A DNA stretch of 64,000 bases, from positions 177,452 to 241,451 of the forward strand of contig JBEKVV010000004.1 in assembly GCA_049513715.1 (NCBI GenBank), read 5' to 3'. The DNA comes from Candidatus Bathyarchaeia archaeon (GTDB lineage: Archaea > Thermoproteota > Bathyarchaeia > 40CM-2-53-6). Shown here in pieces: positions 22,305-36,543 of the stretch. Below the pieces are notes generated by a model, which was not told the DNA's origin, ran no database searches, and saw nothing but the letters and a program-made list of their open reading frames with translations. The position numbers and the translations under genes were made by a program. The stretch's first letter is position 1. Every line of letters starts with the position of its first letter.

Positions 22305-23447
22305 ATGATGGCTATAACACGAGAACTCAGGGGCAAAGAAATAGCGGCTGCACCCAACCAAATCGAGCGTGTTGGCAATGTTTCGTACAAAGTGAAGTCT
22401 CAATCGGGTAACGGCTGCTATGATGTTACATTCTCGACTGTGAATGGTTGGGATTGCACTTGCCCCGACCATGTATTCCGCTTGGTGGAGTGTAAGCACA
22501 TTTGGGCCGTAATGTGCAGCTTCGCCATCAGAAAGGAAGTTGAAGCCAACGTAATCGAACCGATAGTAGATGTTCACGCTTGCGTATTCTGCAAATCTGA
22601 AAATCTCATACGATTTGGTTTGAGACATAACAAGTGCGGCGATCTACAGAAGTTCTCCTGCAAGTCATGCGGAAAAATATTCACGGTAAATCTGGGTTTC
22701 GAGCGCATGAAGCACAATCCACAAGGAATCACAACCGCTATGCAACTCTACTTCAGCGGAGAAAGTCTACGGAACGTAGCCAAATCACTCAAGCTAATCG
22801 GCGTTCAAGTAAGCCACCAAACGGTCTACAACTGGATATCTAAATACACCACCCTAATGGAAAAGTACCTAGACAAAATCACTCCACAGGTCGGCAATAC
22901 TTGGAGAGCCGATGAACTATTCCTCAAAGTCAAAGGGAACATGAAGTATCTCTACGCCCTCATGGACGACCAAACACGATTCTGGATAGCACAAGAAGTA
23001 ATGAACACCAAATACGTTGCAGATGTTCAACCGCTATTTGCAGAAGGCAAACGCAGAACAGGCATAGAACCAAAATACATCATAACTGACGGTGCAAGAA
23101 ATTATGACAAAGCGATTCGGAAAGAGTTTCACGGCAACTTCCGCTACGCTGGCCCGAAACACATTCGGGACATCAGATTCGATGGAACAACCCACAACAA
23201 CAAAATGGAACGCATGAATGGAGAAATCCGAGACCGAGAAAAAGTCATGCGGTCACTCAAGAAAGCGGACACGCCAATCCTAACAGGGCTCCAAATCTAT
23301 CACAACTACGTGCGCCCACACATGGGCTTAAATGGAAAGACACCCGCAGACCTATCGGGAATAACCATCCAAGGTAACGACAAATGGTTGACAATGATAC
23401 AAAACGCTGCACAGCGCACCCCAAGGGAGAAGAAAAGTGAAAGTTAG
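22305..23447 (+). CDS. IS6-family DDE transposase with N-terminal SWIM finger and Zn ribbon
   Basis: CTCPDH..CKHIWAV (SWIM), CVFC..CKSC, HTH SHQTVYNWI, WRADE / ITDG / NNKMERMN. Confidence 0.9.
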   Translation: MMAITRELRGKEIAAAPNQIERVGNVSYKVKSQSGNGCYDVTFSTVNGWDCTCPDHVFRLVECKHIWAVMCSFAIRKEVEANVIEPIVDVHACVFCKSENLIRFGLRHNKCGDLQKFSCKSCGKIFTVNLGFERMKHNPQGITTAMQLYFSGESLRNVAKSLKLIGVQVSHQTVYNWISKYTTLMEKYLDKITPQVGNTWRADELFLKVKGNMKYLYALMDDQTRFWIAQEVMNTKYVADVQPLFAEGKRRTGIEPKYIITDGARNYDKAIRKEFHGNFRYAGPKHIRDIRFDGTTHNNKMERMNGEIRDREKVMRSLKKADTPILTGLQIYHNYVRPHMGLNGKTPADLSGITIQGNDKWLTMIQNAAQRTPREKKSES

Positions 23448-27599: not shown

Positions 27600-28277
27600 A
27601 TGAACGACAGGACTCTATTGGGCGTCGCAATCCTCACATTAGTGATCGCAGGCGCGTCCCTGACGCAAACTTTTCTCCTAACCGCGGCGGTGACCGACCA
27701 AAATAGGCATATCAATCAGCTGGCCTCACAATTTGGAGACCTTGCAGGTCTAGTATCGTCTCTCATGACGCAGAGCAGTCCCAACACTTCATCGAACAAC
27801 GTCGTATACTTGGAGGTCGTTCCCGATTTCGGTGGGTCCACTTATGACGCTTTTGTTCTGCCCACATCCCTCAGTGGTAACACGCCAAACGCATCATCTA
27901 ATGTCGGCGCCGCGCCAAACAACAACATAACTGTACAGCACGGTGTACCGATCAAATTCGTTATCAGCAACTTAGATACCGCACTGCTACAGAACTTCAC
28001 CAGTCAAGTCTCAGTGCCCTTCACACTCTACAACAATACCGATTCCGGCCAAGTGGCCCTACAGTACACCCAGGGTGAGACAGTATCCAACATGGCGATC
28101 AGCCACACGTTCAGCATCCCCGATCTGCAGGTGAACATCCCCATACCCCCTGACACAATGGTCGTGTTCACTTACACCTTCACCACACCCGGTGTCTACG
28201 CATACGTCTGTGTTACTCCATGCGGGCCGGGTATGGGATTAGCGGGCTACATGCTAGGTTACGTAACAGTCACGTAA
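27600..28277 (+). CDS. Membrane-anchored cupredoxin-domain protein
   Basis: N-terminal TM; HTFSIPDL...FTTPGVYAYVCVTPCGPGMGLAGYM. Confidence 0.75.
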   Translation: MNDRTLLGVAILTLVIAGASLTQTFLLTAAVTDQNRHINQLASQFGDLAGLVSSLMTQSSPNTSSNNVVYLEVVPDFGGSTYDAFVLPTSLSGNTPNASSNVGAAPNNNITVQHGVPIKFVISNLDTALLQNFTSQVSVPFTLYNNTDSGQVALQYTQGETVSNMAISHTFSIPDLQVNIPIPPDTMVVFTYTFTTPGVYAYVCVTPCGPGMGLAGYMLGYVTVT

Positions 28278-28296
28278 CCACGATCGGTGGCTCCAG

Positions 28297-29106
28297 ATGG
28301 GGTTCTCTAGGCGTCAATTCCTCACAGTTGCGGCTTCAGCCGCGGGAGGAGCTGCATTTGTCAGCATAATGGAAAACCTTCGGCCCTTGACCGCTGCAGA
28401 AACAACCCAGCTTACTAGCGTCCAGGATCCAAGCGTCAAGAAATGGATCTGGGTAATCGATCTGGGGAAATGCAACGGATGCATGAAATGCACGGAAGCT
28501 TGCACAGTTGAGATGCGAGTTCCGCCGGCTTGGGGCGAACCAGAATATGAAGGCTACCAACCATGGATACAAGTCTTCGGCACAGTAGGTTCGGATCAAC
28601 GAGCCTTCTTCATGCCTGTTCCATGCCAGAACTGCCAGAACGCGCCCTGCGTGAAGGTGTGCCCCGTGGGGGCTAATTACTACAGTGATGACGGTATCGT
28701 TCTCGTCGACCAGCTTAGATGCGTGGGAACCAGGATTTGTATAGGCGCATGTCCGTACCAGAGACGTTTCTTCAACTGGTTCGATCCTCCCGTTTCTGAA
28801 GAAGAGAAGAGCATACCGTACTCACCCGACTACAACATTCCCCACCGGAGGGGTGTTGTGGAAAAGTGCATTTGGTGCAGGCACCGTATCGTTGACGGTA
28901 AAGTTCCTGCATGCGTAGAAGGTTGCGCGAAAGCTGGAATGAAGGTACTGTGGTTTGGAGACGCTGCCCAAGACGCTGTAAGTGACGGGGAGGAAGTGGT
29001 TAGCCTGTCCCAGATGATCAAAGATAGAGGAGCATACCGACTGAAGGAGGACCTTGGGACGGACCCGCGAGTACTCTACCTCCCGCCCCAGGGAGGCTCT
29101 AGCTGA
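28297..29106 (+). CDS. Tat-exported Fe-S protein (NrfC/DsrO/ActB2-like)
   Basis: SRRQFL; CNGCMKCTEAC, CQNCQNAPCVKVCP, CVGTRICIGACP, CIWC..PACVEGC. Confidence 0.9.
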   Translation: MGFSRRQFLTVAASAAGGAAFVSIMENLRPLTAAETTQLTSVQDPSVKKWIWVIDLGKCNGCMKCTEACTVEMRVPPAWGEPEYEGYQPWIQVFGTVGSDQRAFFMPVPCQNCQNAPCVKVCPVGANYYSDDGIVLVDQLRCVGTRICIGACPYQRRFFNWFDPPVSEEEKSIPYSPDYNIPHRRGVVEKCIWCRHRIVDGKVPACVEGCAKAGMKVLWFGDAAQDAVSDGEEVVSLSQMIKDRGAYRLKEDLGTDPRVLYLPPQGGSS

Positions 29107-31034
29107 TGCACCAGGCAAAGGATAACACCGAACTGCTCCTAGATCCACTCACCCGTCGTTCGAATAGCTACTACCTGTTAGTTTCCGTGCTCCTCGCCAT
29201 AGTCGGCTGGGGAGCCTACGCCTATGCTGTCCAAGTTACAAGCGGCATCGGCGTAGCGGGCATTAGGAGCGAAGTGATGTGGGCGATTTACATAACAAAC
29301 TTCGTTTTCTTCATAGGCATAAGTCACGTTGGCGCATTAATGTCCGCTATACTTCGACTGACGAGCGCCGATTGGAGAAAACCAATCACAAGGCTTGCTG
29401 AGGTTGTGACATTTGCGTCTCTGATCGTAGCTGTCACGTTTCCCATTATTCATTTAGGAAGACCCGATCGTTGGATTAACCTATTCATCTACCCGAAACT
29501 CCAGTCTCCGCTCGTGTGGGACCTACTTTGCATAGGAACTTACATGATAGGCAGCACCATTTTCCTTTACCTACCGTTGATACCTGATATCGCAACGTGC
29601 AGGGACAGACTGCCAAACGTCTCAAGATTCAGGCGACGAATCTACTCTGTCCTCTCACTTGGTTGGACAGGCTCAGAATCTGAAATGCAATCCTTGGAGA
29701 AAGCCATTGGGATCATGACGATCCTGATCATACCCATCGCGATTTCAGTTCATACGATCGTATCGTGGGATTTTGCGATGCAGCTTAGGACAGGATGGAA
29801 CAGCACGATATTCGGACCGTACTTCGTGGCTGGGGCACTCCTGTCCGGCGTCGCTACTGTACTTCTGGTAATGGCAGCGTTAACCAAATTCTACCATCTT
29901 AATGACTTCATTACGCGTAAGCATTTCGACAACATTGCAACACTCCTGCTTGCGCTTGACATCGTGATGGTATACCTCACGATTAACGAGTATATGGTTC
30001 CAGGGTACAAGGTATTAGGCCAAAATAACTTGGAAGGGCAATGGCTCAGCAGTCTTCTTTGGGGACTTTATTGGCCCAGATTCTGGTTCCAGATACTAGC
30101 CGGGTTGATCATGCCCGCCATCATTTTAGCAGTACCCAAAACTAGGACAATCACAGGTTACTTGGTAGCTGCGCTTCTTGTTGATATTGGGATGTGGGTA
30201 GAGCGATTTGACATAGTGGTCCCAACCCTGGCATTACCACAGTTACCCTACGCGTGGGGACAATATTCGCCTAGTTGGGTCGAGATCTCGATAACGGCAG
30301 CCGCATTCGCAGGCTTCGCACTTATCTATCTAGTTTTCACCAGAAACTTCCCCATAGTCTCAATGTGGGAGACTGCCGACCAGTCACCGCACGAGGAATT
30401 CTCCGCGAAAACCCTCCCTGAACCTACCAGAACTCTGATCGGGAGGAGCGATTCTGCTTTCGCCTCCCGCAGACGCTTCCTGAGCTATGGCGCCATGATG
30501 GTAGCAGGATTCGCGCTTGGCTCCCTTTCACCTAGCATTGCAACAGCTATGGTTCGCGGTGTGAAAAAGAGCTCATCTGATGTCATCGTACCGATTTCGA
30601 ACCTTGGCGAAAGTGTTTCGGTCAACGATGTCAGGTCGATGGCGAAGTTTCAGGTGGAGAAACCGGCGAGAATGCCGACGGGAAGCAGGCTCGACGACGT
30701 AAGAGTTGGAAATAACGGGGAACTAGTTACATTGCTTTACGTCAACCCAACCGTTCCAACGATCCCTACGTATTCCTCCGCCGTGGGCTTTGCAATCCTA
30801 GAGATGCTTGATCCTAAGCTGGATAGTCCACCAACGTATTTACCGAATGGGTTCAAGCGAGTCAAAGTCAACTTGAACAGTGGTTTCGCAAGGGAATCCA
30901 GTGACGCAGAATTCGACAACAGAGGCGAGCCTGGCCAGCTTCAATGGTGGCAGGGCGGAGTACACTTCGTGATGCTCGCGAACATTCCCATCGAACAACT
31001 CAGGCAGATAGCGGAATCGATGGAGCCAATCTAA
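29106..31034 (+). CDS. NrfD/PsrC-family (ActC-like) quinol-interacting membrane subunit with C-terminal extension
   Basis: ITNFVFFIGISH, HLGRP, SPLVWD, VHTIVSWDFA, PYFVAGA; extra ~200 aa tail. Confidence 0.88.
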   Translation: MHQAKDNTELLLDPLTRRSNSYYLLVSVLLAIVGWGAYAYAVQVTSGIGVAGIRSEVMWAIYITNFVFFIGISHVGALMSAILRLTSADWRKPITRLAEVVTFASLIVAVTFPIIHLGRPDRWINLFIYPKLQSPLVWDLLCIGTYMIGSTIFLYLPLIPDIATCRDRLPNVSRFRRRIYSVLSLGWTGSESEMQSLEKAIGIMTILIIPIAISVHTIVSWDFAMQLRTGWNSTIFGPYFVAGALLSGVATVLLVMAALTKFYHLNDFITRKHFDNIATLLLALDIVMVYLTINEYMVPGYKVLGQNNLEGQWLSSLLWGLYWPRFWFQILAGLIMPAIILAVPKTRTITGYLVAALLVDIGMWVERFDIVVPTLALPQLPYAWGQYSPSWVEISITAAAFAGFALIYLVFTRNFPIVSMWETADQSPHEEFSAKTLPEPTRTLIGRSDSAFASRRRFLSYGAMMVAGFALGSLSPSIATAMVRGVKKSSSDVIVPISNLGESVSVNDVRSMAKFQVEKPARMPTGSRLDDVRVGNNGELVTLLYVNPTVPTIPTYSSAVGFAILEMLDPKLDSPPTYLPNGFKRVKVNLNSGFARESSDAEFDNRGEPGQLQWWQGGVHFVMLANIPIEQLRQIAESMEPI

Positions 31035-31036
31035 CA

Positions 31037-32035
31037 ATGATCAGAAACATCGCCCGCGTACTTGTTCTGCTTCTGCTCGCAATAATGGCAATGGGGTTTT
31101 CCACACTTTCGGGTTACGCCACCGGAATCGCCTCCCATTCAGGATCAATGACCATAATCACCGGTCAAACGACCGGAGAAGTTCCCGGGTTCAAAATATT
31201 CACCGTGATCGTTAGTAGCCGCGGATTCAACGGTTCATCCAACACGCTCAACCTCCCTGTTTCCCAGGGAGACCAGGTCAGCATAACATTCGTGTACGAC
31301 GACCCGACAGTCAATACCGCTCACGAGATGGCAATCGTAGGTTACAACATTCGGACCGCTATAATCGACCAGGCCAACCCGATTAGCAAAATTCAGTTCG
31401 TAGCCGGACAGGTAGGAAGTTTCCAGATCCAATGCATTATTCCATGCGTGGGAATGGACAACCTTCAAAACGCATGGCTACTCGTCAAACGATCAACCGG
31501 GACGTCAATAGGAACGACTTTAACGTTACGAAATGGGCTCTCACTGGCTCTCAATGGCTCTCTACTCAACATCAAAGCACGTGTGACTGACAGAGCAGGA
31601 AACCCGATAACCGGCCTTATCGTCAGCTTCTATGTTAGCACCGACTTCGGTATGATGAAAATCGGCGACAACGTAACTGACACAAGTGGTTTGGCTCACT
31701 TTGCTTACCCGTTACCCTCAGTTCGCAATATGACGGTTGCAGCGTACTTCCCCGGAAGCGGCATCTACCAGAGCGGAAATGCAACCGCTTCCTTAATCCC
31801 ACCATCGAACTCAGGCACAGGTCTCGTTTCCATTGGCGGTGACACTAACCATCCCCCCGGCGGGGAAGGCGCCTTTTTCGATCCCCGACTGATCGGTGTC
31901 CCCACCGATGTTAGTGTGGTTTTGGCTGCGCTCGTGTTGGTTGTCATCATCTGCGTTTGGTCAACATTCGCATACGTGATAAGTCTGGTCTTGAAAATAA
32001 AGAGACAAAACTCGAGGAAGATTGGAGGCAGCTAG
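31037..32035 (+). CDS. Surface protein: cupredoxin domain, Ig-like domain and C-terminal TM
   Basis: Probable ATG at 31037; AHEM...GSFQIQCIIPCVGMDNL; TDTSGLA Ig-like segment; TM followed by KIKRQ. Confidence 0.7.
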   Translation: MIRNIARVLVLLLLAIMAMGFSTLSGYATGIASHSGSMTIITGQTTGEVPGFKIFTVIVSSRGFNGSSNTLNLPVSQGDQVSITFVYDDPTVNTAHEMAIVGYNIRTAIIDQANPISKIQFVAGQVGSFQIQCIIPCVGMDNLQNAWLLVKRSTGTSIGTTLTLRNGLSLALNGSLLNIKARVTDRAGNPITGLIVSFYVSTDFGMMKIGDNVTDTSGLAHFAYPLPSVRNMTVAAYFPGSGIYQSGNATASLIPPSNSGTGLVSIGGDTNHPPGGEGAFFDPRLIGVPTDVSVVLAALVLVVIICVWSTFAYVISLVLKIKRQNSRKIGGS

Positions 32036-32039
32036 TGAC

Positions 32040-32582
32040 ATGAAGTCGAACATTCTGTCCGACAAGAATAGGAAGTATATTGTACTCGCACCAATCGTCG
32101 TTCTAGCCCTAATGATGCTCTTTACTCAAGGGTTCTTCCTGAGCCCCTGGCTCAATGAGCGGAAGATGTCCAATGAGGCCGATTTCTGCCCGCAGACCTT
32201 ATGCTTAGTCAACTACAACTACAACAGGGATCTCATCCAAATCTCCGTAACACTGTACAACGCCGGCACCGAGCCTCTGACGATAATGGATGTATTCTAT
32301 GACGGAAACAGGCTTACGGAAGGTTTTGTGGGAGCGCCTAATGACCCTACGATCATGCCTCTCCCGGGGCCTTCCATGAATTCTAACGACATCATTTTTC
32401 CAGCGGCTAGCCAGTGGAACATGAACACAGAAGGCCCCACGACTCCAACTATATTGCCCGGAGGCATCGCAACTCTATACCTCGGCGTTGCCACCTTCAA
32501 CACGGGGTCGCCACATATCCTGAAGATCGTTGTACAAGGTGGAAGCTATGCGTTCATCATCGAGTCCAAGCCATTGGGCTGA
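32040..32582 (+). CDS. Membrane-anchored hypothetical protein
   Basis: N-terminal TM; YNAGTEPLTI..TILPGG beta-rich domain; last gene of the operon. Confidence 0.65.
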   Translation: MKSNILSDKNRKYIVLAPIVVLALMMLFTQGFFLSPWLNERKMSNEADFCPQTLCLVNYNYNRDLIQISVTLYNAGTEPLTIMDVFYDGNRLTEGFVGAPNDPTIMPLPGPSMNSNDIIFPAASQWNMNTEGPTTPTILPGGIATLYLGVATFNTGSPHILKIVVQGGSYAFIIESKPLG

Positions 32583-32768: not shown

Positions 32769-33122
32769 CTAGCCTCCCGCAACGATCGGTATGAAATTAA
32801 CCACGTCTCCGTCGTTCAAGGTAGAATCCAGCCCTGTGGCAGGAGCATTGTTTACGAGTATTAGCATCGTGGTCATCATCTGTGGCGATAGGGACGAGTG
32901 CCTCTGCACGATGGTATTCAACAGGTTACGAAGTGAAGCATGGTCCGGCAGGTCATAGTACTCATCGCTTATGTTAACAAACTGCTGCATCTGGAAGTAG
33001 ATGACTTTGACGGTGACGAGTGCAGGCCGTTGAAGAAAACTAATCAAGTTAACCGTAGTAAGAGCGGCTCCTCCCGCGATTACCGAACCAATTACCCATC
33101 GCAGGAAACTTCGTCTCTCCAA
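32769..33122 (-). CDS. MoaD/ThiS/SAMP ubiquitin-like protein with twin-arginine leader
   Basis: Probable TTG start at 33122: ERRSFLRW plus hydrophobic helix; ILVN..LNDGDVVNFIPIVAGG C-terminus. Confidence 0.8.
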   Translation of the reverse strand: MERRSFLRWVIGSVIAGGAALTTVNLISFLQRPALVTVKVIYFQMQQFVNISDEYYDLPDHASLRNLLNTIVQRHSSLSPQMMTTMLILVNNAPATGLDSTLNDGDVVNFIPIVAGG

Positions 33123-33280: not shown

Positions 33281-33643
33281 ATGCAAATCAACGAAGACGA
33301 TCGAAAGAAGGCTGTAATCCGAGCCTTGCTAGATGATCACTCAAGATTAATACTTACTTCGACGATGCTTGTTCCCAAATCAGTGATCGACATCACGCGC
33401 GAGCATGAAATTCCGATAACGTCGGCTTATAGGAAAGTCAAGGAGCTGAAAGAATTCGGGTTGTTGAAAGTTGACCGCATCGTACTGACCCCGGATGGCA
33501 AGAAATTCGAGATGGTGAGGAGCACGATAAGGTCAGCCAGCGTTCAATTTGATAAGGGAACGTTAAGTGTAGATGTAACAGCTGGCATTGAGGCAGACGA
33601 GAAGCTGGTAAAACGATTCTTTGCGCTCAGAGAGGTGAGATAA
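33281..33643 (+). CDS. Winged-helix transcriptional regulator (archaeal ArsR-like)
   Basis: PKSVIDI..IPITSAYRKVKELKEFGLL..DGKK. Confidence 0.8.
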   Translation: MQINEDDRKKAVIRALLDDHSRLILTSTMLVPKSVIDITREHEIPITSAYRKVKELKEFGLLKVDRIVLTPDGKKFEMVRSTIRSASVQFDKGTLSVDVTAGIEADEKLVKRFFALREVR

Positions 33644-33918
33644 TGCAGGACATTTACGTGCTGCGCGCCCTCAAACTCGTCATAGTTATCCTCGGATCAA
33701 TTTTGGTGTATCTGGGTGTCAAGGGTTATCGTAAGAACCGGGGTAAGGACATGGTATTCTTGACGGTTGGATTCGCGCTCATCACCGCGGGGTCAGTCGC
33801 TGCTGGTGTGCTGTTCGAATTTCTGGGGTTCCAGTTAATCGACGTTGAGATCGTCGAATCAACGATGGTAATTCTTGGGTTTGCTTCTTTGATCTATTCG
33901 ATTTTTGGGTTTGACTAA
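33643..33918 (+). CDS. Small three-TM membrane protein
   Basis: Translationally coupled to the HTH gene; hydrophobic. Confidence 0.7.
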   Translation: MQDIYVLRALKLVIVILGSILVYLGVKGYRKNRGKDMVFLTVGFALITAGSVAAGVLFEFLGFQLIDVEIVESTMVILGFASLIYSIFGFD

Positions 33919-33920
33919 AC

Positions 33921-34187
33921 TTGCCTGACTTTTTCGAACTCACAAGCTTTCTTCTAATGTTTTACGCAGCCGGGATTTCATTCTACATTGCGAAGCGGGC
34001 TGTTATTGTGGGACGCCGGTACCTGTTCCTGTCTCTTTTGCTCGCTTTTATGGTTCTGTCCCATGGCATCCACCACCTATTCACTTTTCTTCAGTACGTA
34101 GACTTGGAACAGGTTTTCGAATTCGCCGCTTCCGTGTTTGCGTTGGCCTTGGCGCTTGATTACGTGTATGTTTCGAGGCGACCATGA
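33921..34187 (+). CDS. Small three-TM membrane protein with His cluster
   Basis: SHGIHHLF within a TM segment. Confidence 0.65.
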   Translation: MPDFFELTSFLLMFYAAGISFYIAKRAVIVGRRYLFLSLLLAFMVLSHGIHHLFTFLQYVDLEQVFEFAASVFALALALDYVYVSRRP

Positions 34188-34191
34188 AACC

Positions 34192-34470
34192 ATGGAGCAG
34201 TTAATCGTTAGTGCAACATTGGTACTGCTCATAACGGCTGCTCTGATTTTCGCGTTTCAAACGTTCCGTCAGGCCAAGAGAAGTTCGCATAAAGACGCAA
34301 GCTTCCCTACTGTACTTCTGCTTGCCCTGGTGGGTTGGATTGCTACTGAAGCAGTAAGTGATTCAGTCGGGGCCTCCTTAGGAGATGTCGGAAGATGGAC
34401 GCACATGTCGGTAATGATTCTTTTTGCTGGAGCTGTGACATTTCAACTGAAACGCGCTCGAGAAGCATGA
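34192..34470 (+). CDS. Small three-TM membrane protein
   Basis: ATG at 34192 just after the previous stop. Confidence 0.6.
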   Translation: MEQLIVSATLVLLITAALIFAFQTFRQAKRSSHKDASFPTVLLLALVGWIATEAVSDSVGASLGDVGRWTHMSVMILFAGAVTFQLKRAREA

Positions 34471-34499
34471 ACAGCCATGCGGACGGTTAATGCCGCGGC

Positions 34500-34838
34500 T
34501 CATCTGCGGCCTGACAGCGTTTTCTTTGCCTGCTCTATGTAGTCTTCGAGCGCATAGTTGGGCGTCTGAACGAACGTCAAATTCAGCCTACCGTAGAGCT
34601 TTCTCGCCACGTCGTCTCCGATTGTTTTTGCTCCAATCACATCGAATTTGGTCTCAAGAACCTGATAGAGCACACTAAGTCGGTAGGGAATCTCGTCTGG
34701 ACCTATGTCGTAATGATCTTTCAAATGCGCGTACAGAGTTTCCAAATTACGACGCCCCAACAGTTCTGAAAGGAGATCATCTATTGACTTCAGGACCTTT
34801 TGGTTGAAGTCCCTCTGAGAACTGAATGGTATTGACAA
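34500..34838 (-). CDS. Hypothetical helical protein (archaeal DUF3227-like)
   Basis: IDDLLSELLG..LYAHL..EIP..LETKF..GAKTI pattern. Confidence 0.55.
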   Translation of the reverse strand: MSIPFSSQRDFNQKVLKSIDDLLSELLGRRNLETLYAHLKDHYDIGPDEIPYRLSVLYQVLETKFDVIGAKTIGDDVARKLYGRLNLTFVQTPNYALEDYIEQAKKTLSGRR

Positions 34839-34950
34839 GATTTGAAGTTCGAAGATTCCTTCTCAATAATAAACGGGTACTCCCTAGAATGTCGCAGATA
34901 ACGAAACTTCAGGTTAATTACCCAGAGAATCGTTTGGCGGATTACGTTAG

Positions 34951-35661
34951 TTACTCACGGAATGCCTCGACGCTCTCCTTTCCGACAAACGCTAGAATTA
35001 TAGCTGTAGCCAAATAATCGACCCAGCCTAGTTTGAAGAAATAGTTAACGAGCAAGCCTCCAAGCAAGGCAAGAGCCATGAGGAAGCAGGTGGCGGATTC
35101 TATGGCATCGATAGAAAGAGGTACGCAGTTTGTCTCCCTTCCTATCTTTCTCTTCTCAATCCATAGGATAGGCATGATTAACACCGCACCTATGGCCACC
35201 GCTATACCGAGAGGAGAGGATTCAGGTCGTATGCCCGCGAAGTACGAATAAGCAGCACCCAAGCTGATTACTGGAATCAATGCAACGAGAAGCAGTTTCG
35301 TAAGTTTCTCGGCTCTTTCACCTCGCTCGCTCGAACCCCCAGAATTACCTTTCAGATGACTTAGAACTATGAACCCAGAAATCAATTCGACAAGGCTATC
35401 GCTTCCAAATGCGATCAGAGCCAAACTACTCAAAAACAACCCGACACCAATTGAACCGATAACCTCAACAGCCATCCACCCCAAACTAAAATATTCCACC
35501 ACAATCCCAAGATGAATCCTTCCAAGCCTCCAAGAGATGTGAGTCGGCGAACAGCAACAAGAGACACAGCTTGCACATTCGCTAGGGTTCAGGCAATTCT
35601 CGCATGACTCAGCCTCACACTCACAAATCGTGCAGGTGGAGCCATCTTGCATGGGGGCCAT
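34951..35661 (-). CDS. CDF-like (TMEM163-type) cation transporter with Cys-rich N-terminus
   Basis: ALIAFGSDSLVE, LSIDAIES; 10 Cys in the first 37 aa. Confidence 0.8.
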   Translation of the reverse strand: MAPMQDGSTCTICECEAESCENCLNPSECASCVSCCCSPTHISWRLGRIHLGIVVEYFSLGWMAVEVIGSIGVGLFLSSLALIAFGSDSLVELISGFIVLSHLKGNSGGSSERGERAEKLTKLLLVALIPVISLGAAYSYFAGIRPESSPLGIAVAIGAVLIMPILWIEKRKIGRETNCVPLSIDAIESATCFLMALALLGGLLVNYFFKLGWVDYLATAIILAFVGKESVEAFRE

Positions 35662-35703
35662 TTTCTAGAATGCCTCGGCTCCCTCTCTTCCTCAATGGAT
35701 CGT

Positions 35704-36543
35704 TTAAGCGCCCCCAAGTGTCACTATGAGATCTGTTAGAAATCCTGCGCACAATCCGACGAAGATTCCAAGCATAAGAAGGTCGTTTGCTGCCTGTCTC
35801 CTTGCCACATTGTACATCAGCAGGGAAACGTAAATCAGCGAACCGCCCGCAATTGACAGGAACAGTATGTATGCCTGAGTGGAAATCCACAGGCTGCCGA
35901 CAACCGTTCCGATGAATGTTGGGCCTCCGCCAATAAGTCCCGCCTTCAACAGGAAACTTATGCTTGGCCTTTCCGCAAGTCCTGTTAGAGGTCCCGCTAT
36001 CCCAAACCCCTCTGTGGTATTGTGGGCTCCGAAACCAATGATCAGGAGTACTGCCAGACCCATTGCTCCAGAGGCGTATGACTGGCCTATGGCAAGCCCC
36101 TCACTGAAGTTGTGAGCCCCGATTCCTATGGCAATCATCATTGCAAACCTGTATGCGTTTCTTCGTTCCAGTATTAGCGACTCCGATGGACTACCGGCAG
36201 CTTTCGGTGAAACGGGCAATCTTTCCTTCATCATGTACCGGGTTTCATACCACACCAACCCCAAGAGTCCAATTGCAAGCCCACCAAACACAGCCAGGAG
36301 GTCCAAAACAGCATCGCTTGGCGGTAACTGCCCCGCAAAAGCTCCAGCAGCAACGTTAGCCGCTGATTCCCAACCATGACTGAAAACATCGATGATGAGG
36401 AAGATCAGAATACCTATCGCAAGTGCGTTGAGAAACCCCTTCTTTCTCAAACTGATGTTCTGGAGAACTACAAGAGGTAAACCAAGAAATATCGTAAAGC
36501 CAGCGATAGCTCCGAGTAACAGCAAATCTGTGTAGTTCATCAA
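35704..36543 (-). CDS. ZIP-family divalent metal transporter
   Basis: GIGAHNFSEGLAIG, GFGAHNTTEGFGI. Confidence 0.92.
   Translation of the reverse strand: MMNYTDLLLLGAIAGFTIFLGLPLVVLQNISLRKKGFLNALAIGILIFLIIDVFSHGWESAANVAAGAFAGQLPPSDAVLDLLAVFGGLAIGLLGLVWYETRYMMKERLPVSPKAAGSPSESLILERRNAYRFAMMIAIGIGAHNFSEGLAIGQSYASGAMGLAVLLIIGFGAHNTTEGFGIAGPLTGLAERPSISFLLKAGLIGGGPTFIGTVVGSLWISTQAYILFLSIAGGSLIYVSLLMYNVARRQAANDLLMLGIFVGLCAGFLTDLIVTLGGA

Follow-up and report, generated by a model that had tools for sequence, protein, structure and literature searches.

A haem-free, molybdenum-free NrfCD-type operon with copper-type domains in a Bathyarchaeia genome: a candidate quinol:cupredoxin oxidoreductase

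The window studied here is a 64-kb stretch from the genome of a Candidatus Bathyarchaeia archaeon (source genome G000, contig C4:177452-241451; marker completeness 99.4%, contamination 8.8%). At window positions 27600-32582, it carries five genes for a cupredoxin, an iron-sulfur (Fe-S) protein with a twin-arginine translocation (Tat) signal, a membrane subunit of the NrfD family, a protein with a cupredoxin and an immunoglobulin-like (Ig) domain, and an anchored protein. With modest confidence, we propose that this operon encodes a quinol:cupredoxin oxidoreductase, a minimal membrane complex free of haem and molybdenum (Mo). This reading is supported by the conserved gene order, the single NrfD clade, the kept quinone-site and channel residues, the cupredoxin in the first gene position (slot 1), the related loci with the same adaptor, the model of the complex, and the ratio of non-synonymous to synonymous substitution rates (dN/dS). 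Its weak point is the electron sink, as the aa3 oxidase is lost from the source genome while the operon is intact. Judged from its sequence, the operon is a member of the NrfCD redox-dimer family and stands outside alternative complex III (ACIII), Qrc, Dsr, and the complex iron-sulfur molybdoenzymes (CISM). It is real and conserved, and as a variant on a known module it is apparently undescribed.

The NrfD subunit would oxidise quinol at its outer-face site, and the proximal cluster, predicted to be [3Fe-4S], would accept the electrons. The Fe-S subunit would relay them to tethered CuA-like domains on the outer face. From there, the gene 1 product or another membrane-anchored CuA or blue-copper protein may hand them to a terminal oxidase, which is of the aa3 type in most carriers. 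Copper binding and the direction from quinol to copper are the steps that we infer, and proton release or pumping may accompany them. In one sub-lineage, to which the source genome belongs, the quinol site would have been retuned toward the ACIII design by convergence.

The five genes and their predicted assembly

The interval is filled by five open reading frames on the same strand (+), separated by 19, -1, 2, and 4 nt. Their products have 225, 269, 642, 332, and 180 aa (genes 1 to 5 in order; P0001 to P0005). The features are as follows:

27600..28277 (+): gene 1, P0001, 225 aa; N-terminal membrane anchor and CuA-derived cupredoxin
28297..29106 (+): gene 2, P0002, 269 aa; Tat-signal Fe-S protein of the NrfC/PsrB type, predicted 3x[4Fe-4S] + 1x[3Fe-4S]
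28720..28740 (+): CVGTRIC motif (P0002 residue 142); Thr145 in place of Cys, predicted [3Fe-4S]
28957..29010 (+): clade-specific Fe-S insertion, P0002 residues 221-238; predicted dock for the gene 4 Ig domain
29106..31034 (+): gene 3, P0003, 642 aa; 10-helix NrfD-family quinone-site subunit (1-425), PF03916 E 1.7e-29
30468..31031 (+): C-terminal extension of NrfD; SRRRFL twin-arginine-like motif, 11th helix, DUF4367-like domain
31037..32035 (+): gene 4, P0004, 332 aa; signal peptide, cupredoxin ~50-153, Ig domain 157-256, C-terminal membrane helix
31640..31663 (+): gene 4 Ig hairpin, residues 202-209 (T-D-F-G); predicted contact with the Fe-S subunit
32040..32582 (+): gene 5, P0005, 180 aa; N-terminally anchored, without conserved metal ligands

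This layout agrees with an earlier note on the same DNA, which had read these positions as an operon of the same five products. Its remark that no CxxCH haem motif is present holds for all five proteins, and no Mo-bisPGD subunit (PF00384) was matched anywhere in the source genome, in agreement with its statement that a molybdopterin subunit is missing; the control search was positive in 11 of 14 genomes. The six motifs that it quoted are also in place: CVGTRIC at residue 142 of P0002 and, in P0003, ITNFVFFIGISH at 63, HLGRP at 116, SPLVWD at 134, VHTIVSWDFA at 215, and PYFVAGA at 238. Judged from relatives, the start of gene 4 is most likely 31037 rather than 30944. A scan for sigma-70 promoters and terminators gave hits at or below chance, the sigma-70 model being unsuited to an archaeon.

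Gene 2: P0002 opens with an SRRQFL signal and has 15 Cys in a four-cluster layout, with Thr145 at the position of the 16th. Its gene adjoins the NrfD gene, and its Fer4_11 match is above the cut-off. P0002 also matches the DsrO, QrcC, and NrfC families, each below its cut-off. The best match in the Protein Data Bank (PDB) is ActB of ACIII (6f0k_B, E 6.3e-28).

Gene 3: P0003 has a PF03916 match above the cut-off and 10+1 hydrophobic segments. Its best PDB match is ActC of ACIII (6btm_C, E 1.9e-68). We read the alignment with 6f0k_C by eye against Table 2 of PMC8076601. H116, S134, D139, and D222 correspond to His139, Ser164, Asp169, and Asp253 of ActC, i.e., to all four quinone-site residues of that table. 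The N-side channel residues listed there are kept in 12 of 13 cases, the exception being Thr100, which is Ala in P0003. Tyr270, Glu326, Glu394, and Arg395 are retained as well, Glu338 probably is, and Tyr323 is lost. An extension of ~215 aa, absent from the earlier account of the operon, follows the helical part. In 9/9 relatives displayed, this tail is opened by an RR or KR motif and then a helix. The tail matches DUF4367 with E 5.7e-4 in P0003 and 1.6e-5 in the homologue of G064. The DUF4367-like domain has no Cys or His ligands and is probably external.

Gene 1: The cupredoxin calls are below threshold in Pfam and are based on a CuA profile match for gene 1 and on a fold search for gene 4. 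The ligand set of gene 1 reads H169...C204-x-x-P-C208-G-x-G-M212...M218, with Met at the place of the second His of CuA. Its best solved match is the CuA domain of ba3 oxidase (E 1.4e-5), in which H169, C204, and C208 are in register and Met212 falls on the second His. H169, C204, C208, and M212 occur in 121/121 homologues and M218 in 120/121 (query plus the best 120 of 277 matches, 50-96% identical). Structural neighbours of the Atlas model are cupredoxins. Four homologues (P0071, P0075, P0080, P0116) have an N-terminal IscA-like domain (PF01521) preceding the membrane anchor; these look like a cytoplasmic Fe-S-carrier-like domain fused to an external cupredoxin.

Gene 4: The AlphaFold2 model has a mean predicted local distance difference test score (pLDDT) of 74 and consists of a cupredoxin and an Ig domain. 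The cupredoxin resembles the CuA domain of NosZ (Z 11.5, root-mean-square deviation (rmsd) 2.5 A, 106 aligned) and, tied with it, a multicopper-oxidase domain (Z 12.3). The ligand-type residues are H96, C133, C137, M140, and L143. H96, C133, C137, and L143 are found in 51/51 rows, and position 140 is Met in 43 and His in 8. The full CuA ligand set, His...Cys-x3-Cys-x3-His-x2-Met, is not found, the second His being replaced by Met. From these conserved residues, both cupredoxin domains probably bind copper.

Gene 5: P0005 has no match in Pfam or NCBIfam. The look-alikes of its Atlas model are archaeal pilin/archaellin-like clusters (0.90-0.92), which gives a lead only. The gene stands in the final position in 13/13 five-gene operons, and the product is likely a structural subunit.

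For the pair of the Fe-S subunit (45-266) and gene 4 (48-256), the complex model scored 0.72, and the best of three controls scored 0.01. The score mark is reached by 116/157 solved complexes and 2/215 mismatched pairs, counts that are approximate with the alignments used here. At least 95% of the contacts agreed between runs, and the pLDDT of the partner was at least 84. The modelled interface is the gene 4 Ig hairpin 202-209 on Fe-S residues 221-238. This hairpin is well kept, with T in 45/51, F in 45/51, and G in 49/51 rows. The Ig domain of gene 4 is thus predicted to grip the Fe-S insertion and to hold the copper-type domain nearby on its linker.

The insertion and an Ig partner occur together in 23 loci (L039 duplicates L027), and the insertion is found in 0/60 MopB loci; MopB and the Ig adaptor share none of the 92 loci scored. 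Scoring was by pattern in 92/111 loci, and two loci that carry the insertion by eye (L045, L046) were missed by the pattern. As the loci with both features are kin, they count as one evolutionary event. The same Ig-plus-helix adaptor recurs in related loci, where a cupredoxin, a DOMON domain, or a cytochrome c next to it accompanies it; all three are known electron-carrier folds. In five acidobacterial loci (L045, L058, L089, L093, L101), the Ig adaptor is fused to the C-terminus of NrfD, and multihaem cytochromes adjoin the fused NrfD in at least L045, L058, and L089.

Distribution and NrfD phylogeny

The five-gene order recurs in 13 archaeal genomes from several Thermoproteota families: the source genome, 6 of 60 relatives, 5 of 400 genomes sampled from the phylum, and G064. 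The conservation of the neighbourhood, proposed earlier as a check, is therefore observed, and the cupredoxins do co-occur in homologous loci. In 6/13 operons, slot 1 is filled from another cupredoxin family, whose CuA-like motif contains His; in 5 of these 6, gene 4 has His at the position of Met140 of P0004. Hence, the slot is conserved rather than the gene. Pairwise dN/dS values of the operon are 0.06-0.35. The copies of G006, G018, and G352 are frameshifted, which may be due to sequencing errors. Cytochrome c maturation (PF01578) has no match in any of the 13 carriers, and it is above the cut-off in 1/37 family genomes.

A scan of GTDB genomes gave at least 601 stretches, of which 558 were confirmed and the best 80 retained. 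Mo-free loci come closest among these best 80 of at least 558; they belong to Methanomassiliicoccales, Thermofilaceae, Nitrososphaerota, Dehalococcoidia, Limnocylindria, Symbiobacterium, and Acidobacteria. Common to them are the Tat Fe-S protein, NrfD, and an Ig-plus-helix protein, which bears a cupredoxin or DOMON domain, has a cytochrome c as its neighbour, or forms a fusion with NrfD. The remainder are mostly pentahaem plus MopB-like loci or canonical ACIII. Large surface proteins with IPT/TIG repeats, which archaea and Dehalococcoidia have in common, accompany the three-gene loci L027/L039, L043, L044, and L091. A further archaeal operon (L259, L260; family f61) combines a trihaem cytochrome, a Tat Fe-S protein, NrfD, and genes that by eye are DsrK/HdrD- and DsrM-like.

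Two NrfD trees were made from a set of 106 rows, a quick one with 72 and a careful one with 44. Near-duplicates were left out, and so were the long branches: ActF, NrfD and HybB of E. coli, and unassigned rows. ActC rows were identified by locus context (fused ActB plus ActF); solved ActC, true QrcD, and PsrC are not in the tree. The NrfD proteins of the five-gene operons form one clade (100/99), and their nearest rows are Mo-free three-gene loci (97/96). NrfD of ACIII falls in a separate clade (100/100) together with pentahaem/MopB-split loci. DsrP forms a distant clade, and the MopB-linked NrfD paralogues of Bathyarchaeia form another. A constrained topology with this NrfD and its sister inside the clade of ACIII was rejected by the approximately unbiased (AU) test (p 9.8e-5). 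Monophyly of all Mo-free loci together is weak (81/74).

We then scored three traits from alignment columns, namely the Fe-S ligand and the residues at the His139 and Asp253 positions; both genes were scored in 76 of 86 loci. The triples were Thr/His/Asp in 35, Cys/Asp/Ile in 25, Cys/Asp/Asp in 8, Cys/Asp/Val in 7, and Ile/His/Asp in 1. Eight of the 13 five-gene operons have Cys/Asp/Asp and five have Thr/His/Asp; the three-gene relatives have Cys/Asp/Ile in 11/11. The operons without Thr have CIGCR at the CVGTRIC site. The Thr/His operons are a sub-lineage of five genomes nested among Cys/Asp relatives, and each trait needs two changes on the tree. With two origins required, Thr and His of the ACIII type look convergent. 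The sequence around Thr145 follows its own clade (RIC..ACPY) and not ActB (RYC.NNCPY). Thr and His give only two independent pairs (sign test p 0.5), and their joint change is a pattern and not statistical proof of co-evolution. The simplest reading of these columns is that an ACIII-like quinol site was reached by stepwise convergence, Asp253 first and then His139 together with the [3Fe-4S] cluster.

The earlier note had seen an ACIII core in which the cytochromes were exchanged for cupredoxins. This identity is not supported, as the NrfD lies outside the ActC clade and Thr/His is limited to the nested sub-lineage. The idea of a copper-wired complex free of haem c fares better: the operon is free of haem c and Mo, PF01578 has no match in any of the 13 carriers, the ligand residues are invariant, and the cupredoxin slot is kept.

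The surroundings of the operon hold several other genes. Adjacent to it, at 32769-33122 (-), lies a gene for a MoaD/ThiS-fold protein that ends in GG and has a twin-arginine-like N-terminal anchor, a candidate exported sulfur-carrier or ubiquitin-like protein by its sequence features. Beside the operon, this gene occurs in the five Thr/His genomes (G000, G006, G010, G016, G019) and in no other carrier, and more distant copies are found near MopB-NrfD operons. Downstream, 33281-36543 encodes a helix-turn-helix (HTH) regulator, three small membrane proteins, and cation-efflux and ZIP transporters; in G014, G016, G018, and G019, too, the HTH gene is a neighbour of the operon. About 4 kb upstream, at 22305-23447 (+), is an IS240/IS6-type DDE transposase with an N-terminal SWIM finger.

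Electron sinks and alternative explanations

Several points weigh against a quinol:cupredoxin oxidoreductase. The first is that the aa3 operon of the source genome is deleted in place (C1:314156-315391) between flanks that are syntenic with relatives. A coxA end of ~30 codons and a coxC of 70 aa remain, the result of two separate deletions; A-family respiration was lost here in a lineage where it is common. The route to an aa3 oxidase implied earlier cannot run in this genome for that reason. A-family coxA is complete in 11/13 carriers and partial at a contig end in one. It is also present in 22/37 family genomes (E<1e-100) and thus common in the family anyway, which makes its co-occurrence with the operon weak and little discriminating. 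The source genome has a bd oxidase and a single haem-copper enzyme (C9:7961-10183, L036), in which Asp replaces the first CuB His and subunit II lacks the CuA ligands. The same motif occurs in G001, G021, and G231. Both features are those of gNOR, which is proposed to oxidise quinol in the consulted part of PMC11214002. The remaining oxidases are therefore expected to take quinol directly.

Further points concern redundancy and the copper sites. Of the four cytochrome b genes in the source genome, three adjoin a Rieske gene, and at one of these three sites a CuA carrier is encoded as well, which makes a second complex III look redundant. No match to MqnA/D of the futalosine pathway was found in this genome, in which four UbiA-family genes are present. 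Both copper sites are non-canonical (His to Met in both, axial Met to Leu in gene 4), the cupredoxin domain lies outside the confident interface of the complex model, and gene 1 is also found away from the operon and from any NrfD in five genomes.

As for the Rieske loci, C1:753442-756909 holds a Rieske protein, cytochrome b, a stand-alone canonical CuA protein, and haem o synthase; it may encode a cytochrome-c-free Rieske/b complex with a CuA carrier and without oxidase subunit I. An operon of a DOMON-like anchored protein, Rieske protein, and cytochrome b is found at C3:417693-420975 and at L020:3127-6372, and its copy in G006 immediately follows the five-gene operon on the downstream side.

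The remaining quinol-type enzymes would suit an inward, Qrc-like flow, in which an external donor (reduced humic quinones, Fe(II), or sulfur species) would deliver electrons to the copper domains and the Fe-S/NrfD pair would reduce quinone for the bd or gNOR-like enzyme. We consider this unlikely. The Asp at the His139 position in 8/13 operons and 11/11 three-gene relatives recalls Asp120 of QrcD (PMC8076601, Table 2), and Qrc, a quinone reducer, also has a proximal [3Fe-4S] cluster according to the pages of PMC6303296 consulted, which counts against our own reading too. The copy of the source genome, however, has the His/Asp/[3Fe-4S] set that is otherwise a mark of the quinol-oxidising ACIII, and its NCBIfam score for QrcD reaches 65.9 where 570 is required. 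The potential of a CuA-type site is usually much more positive than that of menaquinone, and an electron step from the former to the latter would be uphill.

Alternatively, quinol is oxidised and the copper heads are the end point, reducing extracellular Cu(II), Fe(III) chelates, or humic quinones or supplying reductant for the copper loading of surface cuproproteins. That the operon is intact and under purifying selection despite the aa3 deletion would be explained in this way. With two Cys and several Met, the sites are reminiscent of Cu(I) chaperones, e.g., CupA (4f2e, Z 9.6), but the ligands are in register with CuA, and the His-containing versions of gene 4 (8/51 rows) are closer still to it. 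Genes for ZIP and cation-efflux transporters lie 2-4 kb away in the window, but such genes were not seen beside the operon in the relatives listed. This explanation, too, seems improbable to us.

We think it very unlikely that the operon is an orphan NrfCD module working for a catalytic enzyme whose gene lies elsewhere (as in Psr, Nrf, and Hyb), with the cupredoxins as accessories. NrfCD modules can work alone with soluble partners (PMC6303296, in the part consulted), and gene 1 is not always linked to the operon. Yet the source genome has no match to PF00384, PF07732 (multicopper oxidase/NirK), PF01578, or PF00116 (COX2, of the COX2/NosZ type), and it has a single NrfD match. Three NiFe large subunits are encoded, but no NiFe small subunit is among the 11 candidates with a Tat motif. 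The four Tat candidates that were scanned gave two Rieske proteins, one solute-binding protein, and one unassigned protein, none of them a catalytic partner. A catalytic partner elsewhere, which would have spoken against the earlier note, was not found in these searches of the source genome, and MopB and the Ig adaptor never share a scored locus.

Least credible is a relic in the source genome that once fed the lost aa3 oxidase: the deletion, 5 synonymous and 12 non-synonymous changes of gene 4 on this branch (rough ratio 0.64, small numbers), and the frameshifted copies elsewhere would fit, but none of the five frames is broken and no ligand is lost, the changes of the Fe-S gene on the same branch are 14 synonymous and 1 non-synonymous, and the aa3 operon took two separate deletions.

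Beyond the quinol:cupredoxin oxidoreductase itself, a wider picture can be drawn, which we offer only tentatively. An undescribed family of NrfD complexes would be built on a plug-in adaptor, whose Ig hairpin docks on the Fe-S insertion and whose heads (copper, haem-b, or cytochrome c) can be exchanged. Within it, an archaeal branch would have independently re-evolved the ACIII quinol site and would work as a complex III with copper only and no haem, conserving energy in the absence of ActD and ActF.

If a quinol:cupredoxin oxidoreductase is encoded, abundant archaea of soils and hot springs would have a third means of wiring the quinone pool, one that needs no cytochrome. The operon would also be a small test system for bioenergetics, in which the ActC residues occur in the absence of ActD, ActF, and haem maturation. 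The natural Cys/Asp/Ile, Cys/Asp/Asp, and Thr/His/Asp variants make the roles of His139, Asp253, and [3Fe-4S] in direction and coupling testable. The CuA-like sites with Met for His would be a new natural type of copper site.

Comparison with known complexes

In the literature searched, we found no published description of the operon; supplementary lists, which may hold such loci, were outside that scope. Table 1 of PMC8076601 covers 13 complexes, all without a copper subunit, and Table 2 of PMC10100899 lists no archaeal ActB among 3,464 hits. For aerobic soil Bathyarchaeia, the consulted part of PMC10321748 mentions only cytochrome c oxidase.

Membership in ACIII was rejected on four counts. 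The pentahaem ActA and the monohaem ActE are missing, as no CxxCH occurs in the five proteins and PF01578 has no match in the genome. The ActB fusion, in which a Mo-free MopB-like domain is joined to a four-cluster domain, is missing, since the Fe-S subunit is a stand-alone Tat protein of 269 aa and PF00384 has no match in the genome. For ActF, the second NrfD-like subunit of ACIII, and ActD, the genome has one NrfD match, and no two-helix ActD-like gene is in the operon. The NrfD itself is in a separate clade (100/99, AU p 9.8e-5). The residues of the ACIII quinol site and [3Fe-4S] motif are all there (H116, S134, D139, D222, Thr145), though with two origins on the tree. Qrc was rejected because QrcD (65.9/570) and QrcC (137/400) score far under their NCBIfam cut-offs and the multihaem QrcA and MopB-like QrcB are absent, the tree being without true QrcD. 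DsrMKJOP was rejected as DsrP is a distant clade with a score of 114 against 350; DsrO scores 176 against 200. The CISM enzymes (Psr, Dms, Ttr, Arr) were rejected as the 99.4% complete genome has no PF00384 match.

ACIII (ActABCDEF; 6F0K, 6BTM, 6LOD, 8K9E): Both core subunits have their best PDB matches here. The likeness comprises the 10-helix NrfD with equivalents of His139, Ser164, Asp169, Asp253, and Glu394-Arg395 (PMC8076601, Table 2), the predicted 3x[4Fe-4S]+[3Fe-4S] set, and the external orientation. In the part of PMC5928083 consulted, the [3Fe-4S] cluster of ACIII is proximal to the quinol site and has a potential of +140 mV. Proton pumping by the ActC-type subunit is proposed and unconfirmed in the consulted parts of PMC6303296 and PMC13059093. 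ActA, ActE, ActB1, ActD, and ActF have no counterpart in the operon. Its Fe-S subunit is a stand-alone Tat protein, and copper-type domains with an Ig adaptor take the place of the cytochromes. A cupredoxin, auracyanin, is reportedly the acceptor of the ACIII of Roseiflexus, which sets a precedent for the acceptor type proposed here.

CuA domains of ba3/aa3 subunit II and N2O reductase: The cupredoxin fold and the His...Cys-x3-Cys ligands in register are shared. The operon proteins differ in having Met for the second His in both genes, and the axial Met is Leu in gene 4 and displaced six residues later in gene 1. They belong to neither an oxidase nor NosZ.

Dual Sec/Tat-integrated membrane proteins: As in the proteins described in the consulted part of PMC5449189, a polytopic part precedes a twin-arginine helix inside the chain and a domain on the outside. 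The NrfD tail, with its putative Tat dependence, differs from these in lacking cofactor ligands.

QrcABCD and NrfCD-type dimers (NrfCD, PsrBC, DsrOP, HybAB): The operon shares with them the Fe-S protein and the cofactor-free membrane subunit with a quinone site, and it differs in having no multihaem cytochrome, Mo, or NiFe subunit. As in the NrfCD/PsrBC redox dimer, a cofactor-free NrfD-family membrane subunit and a four-cluster Fe-S subunit are encoded by adjacent genes.

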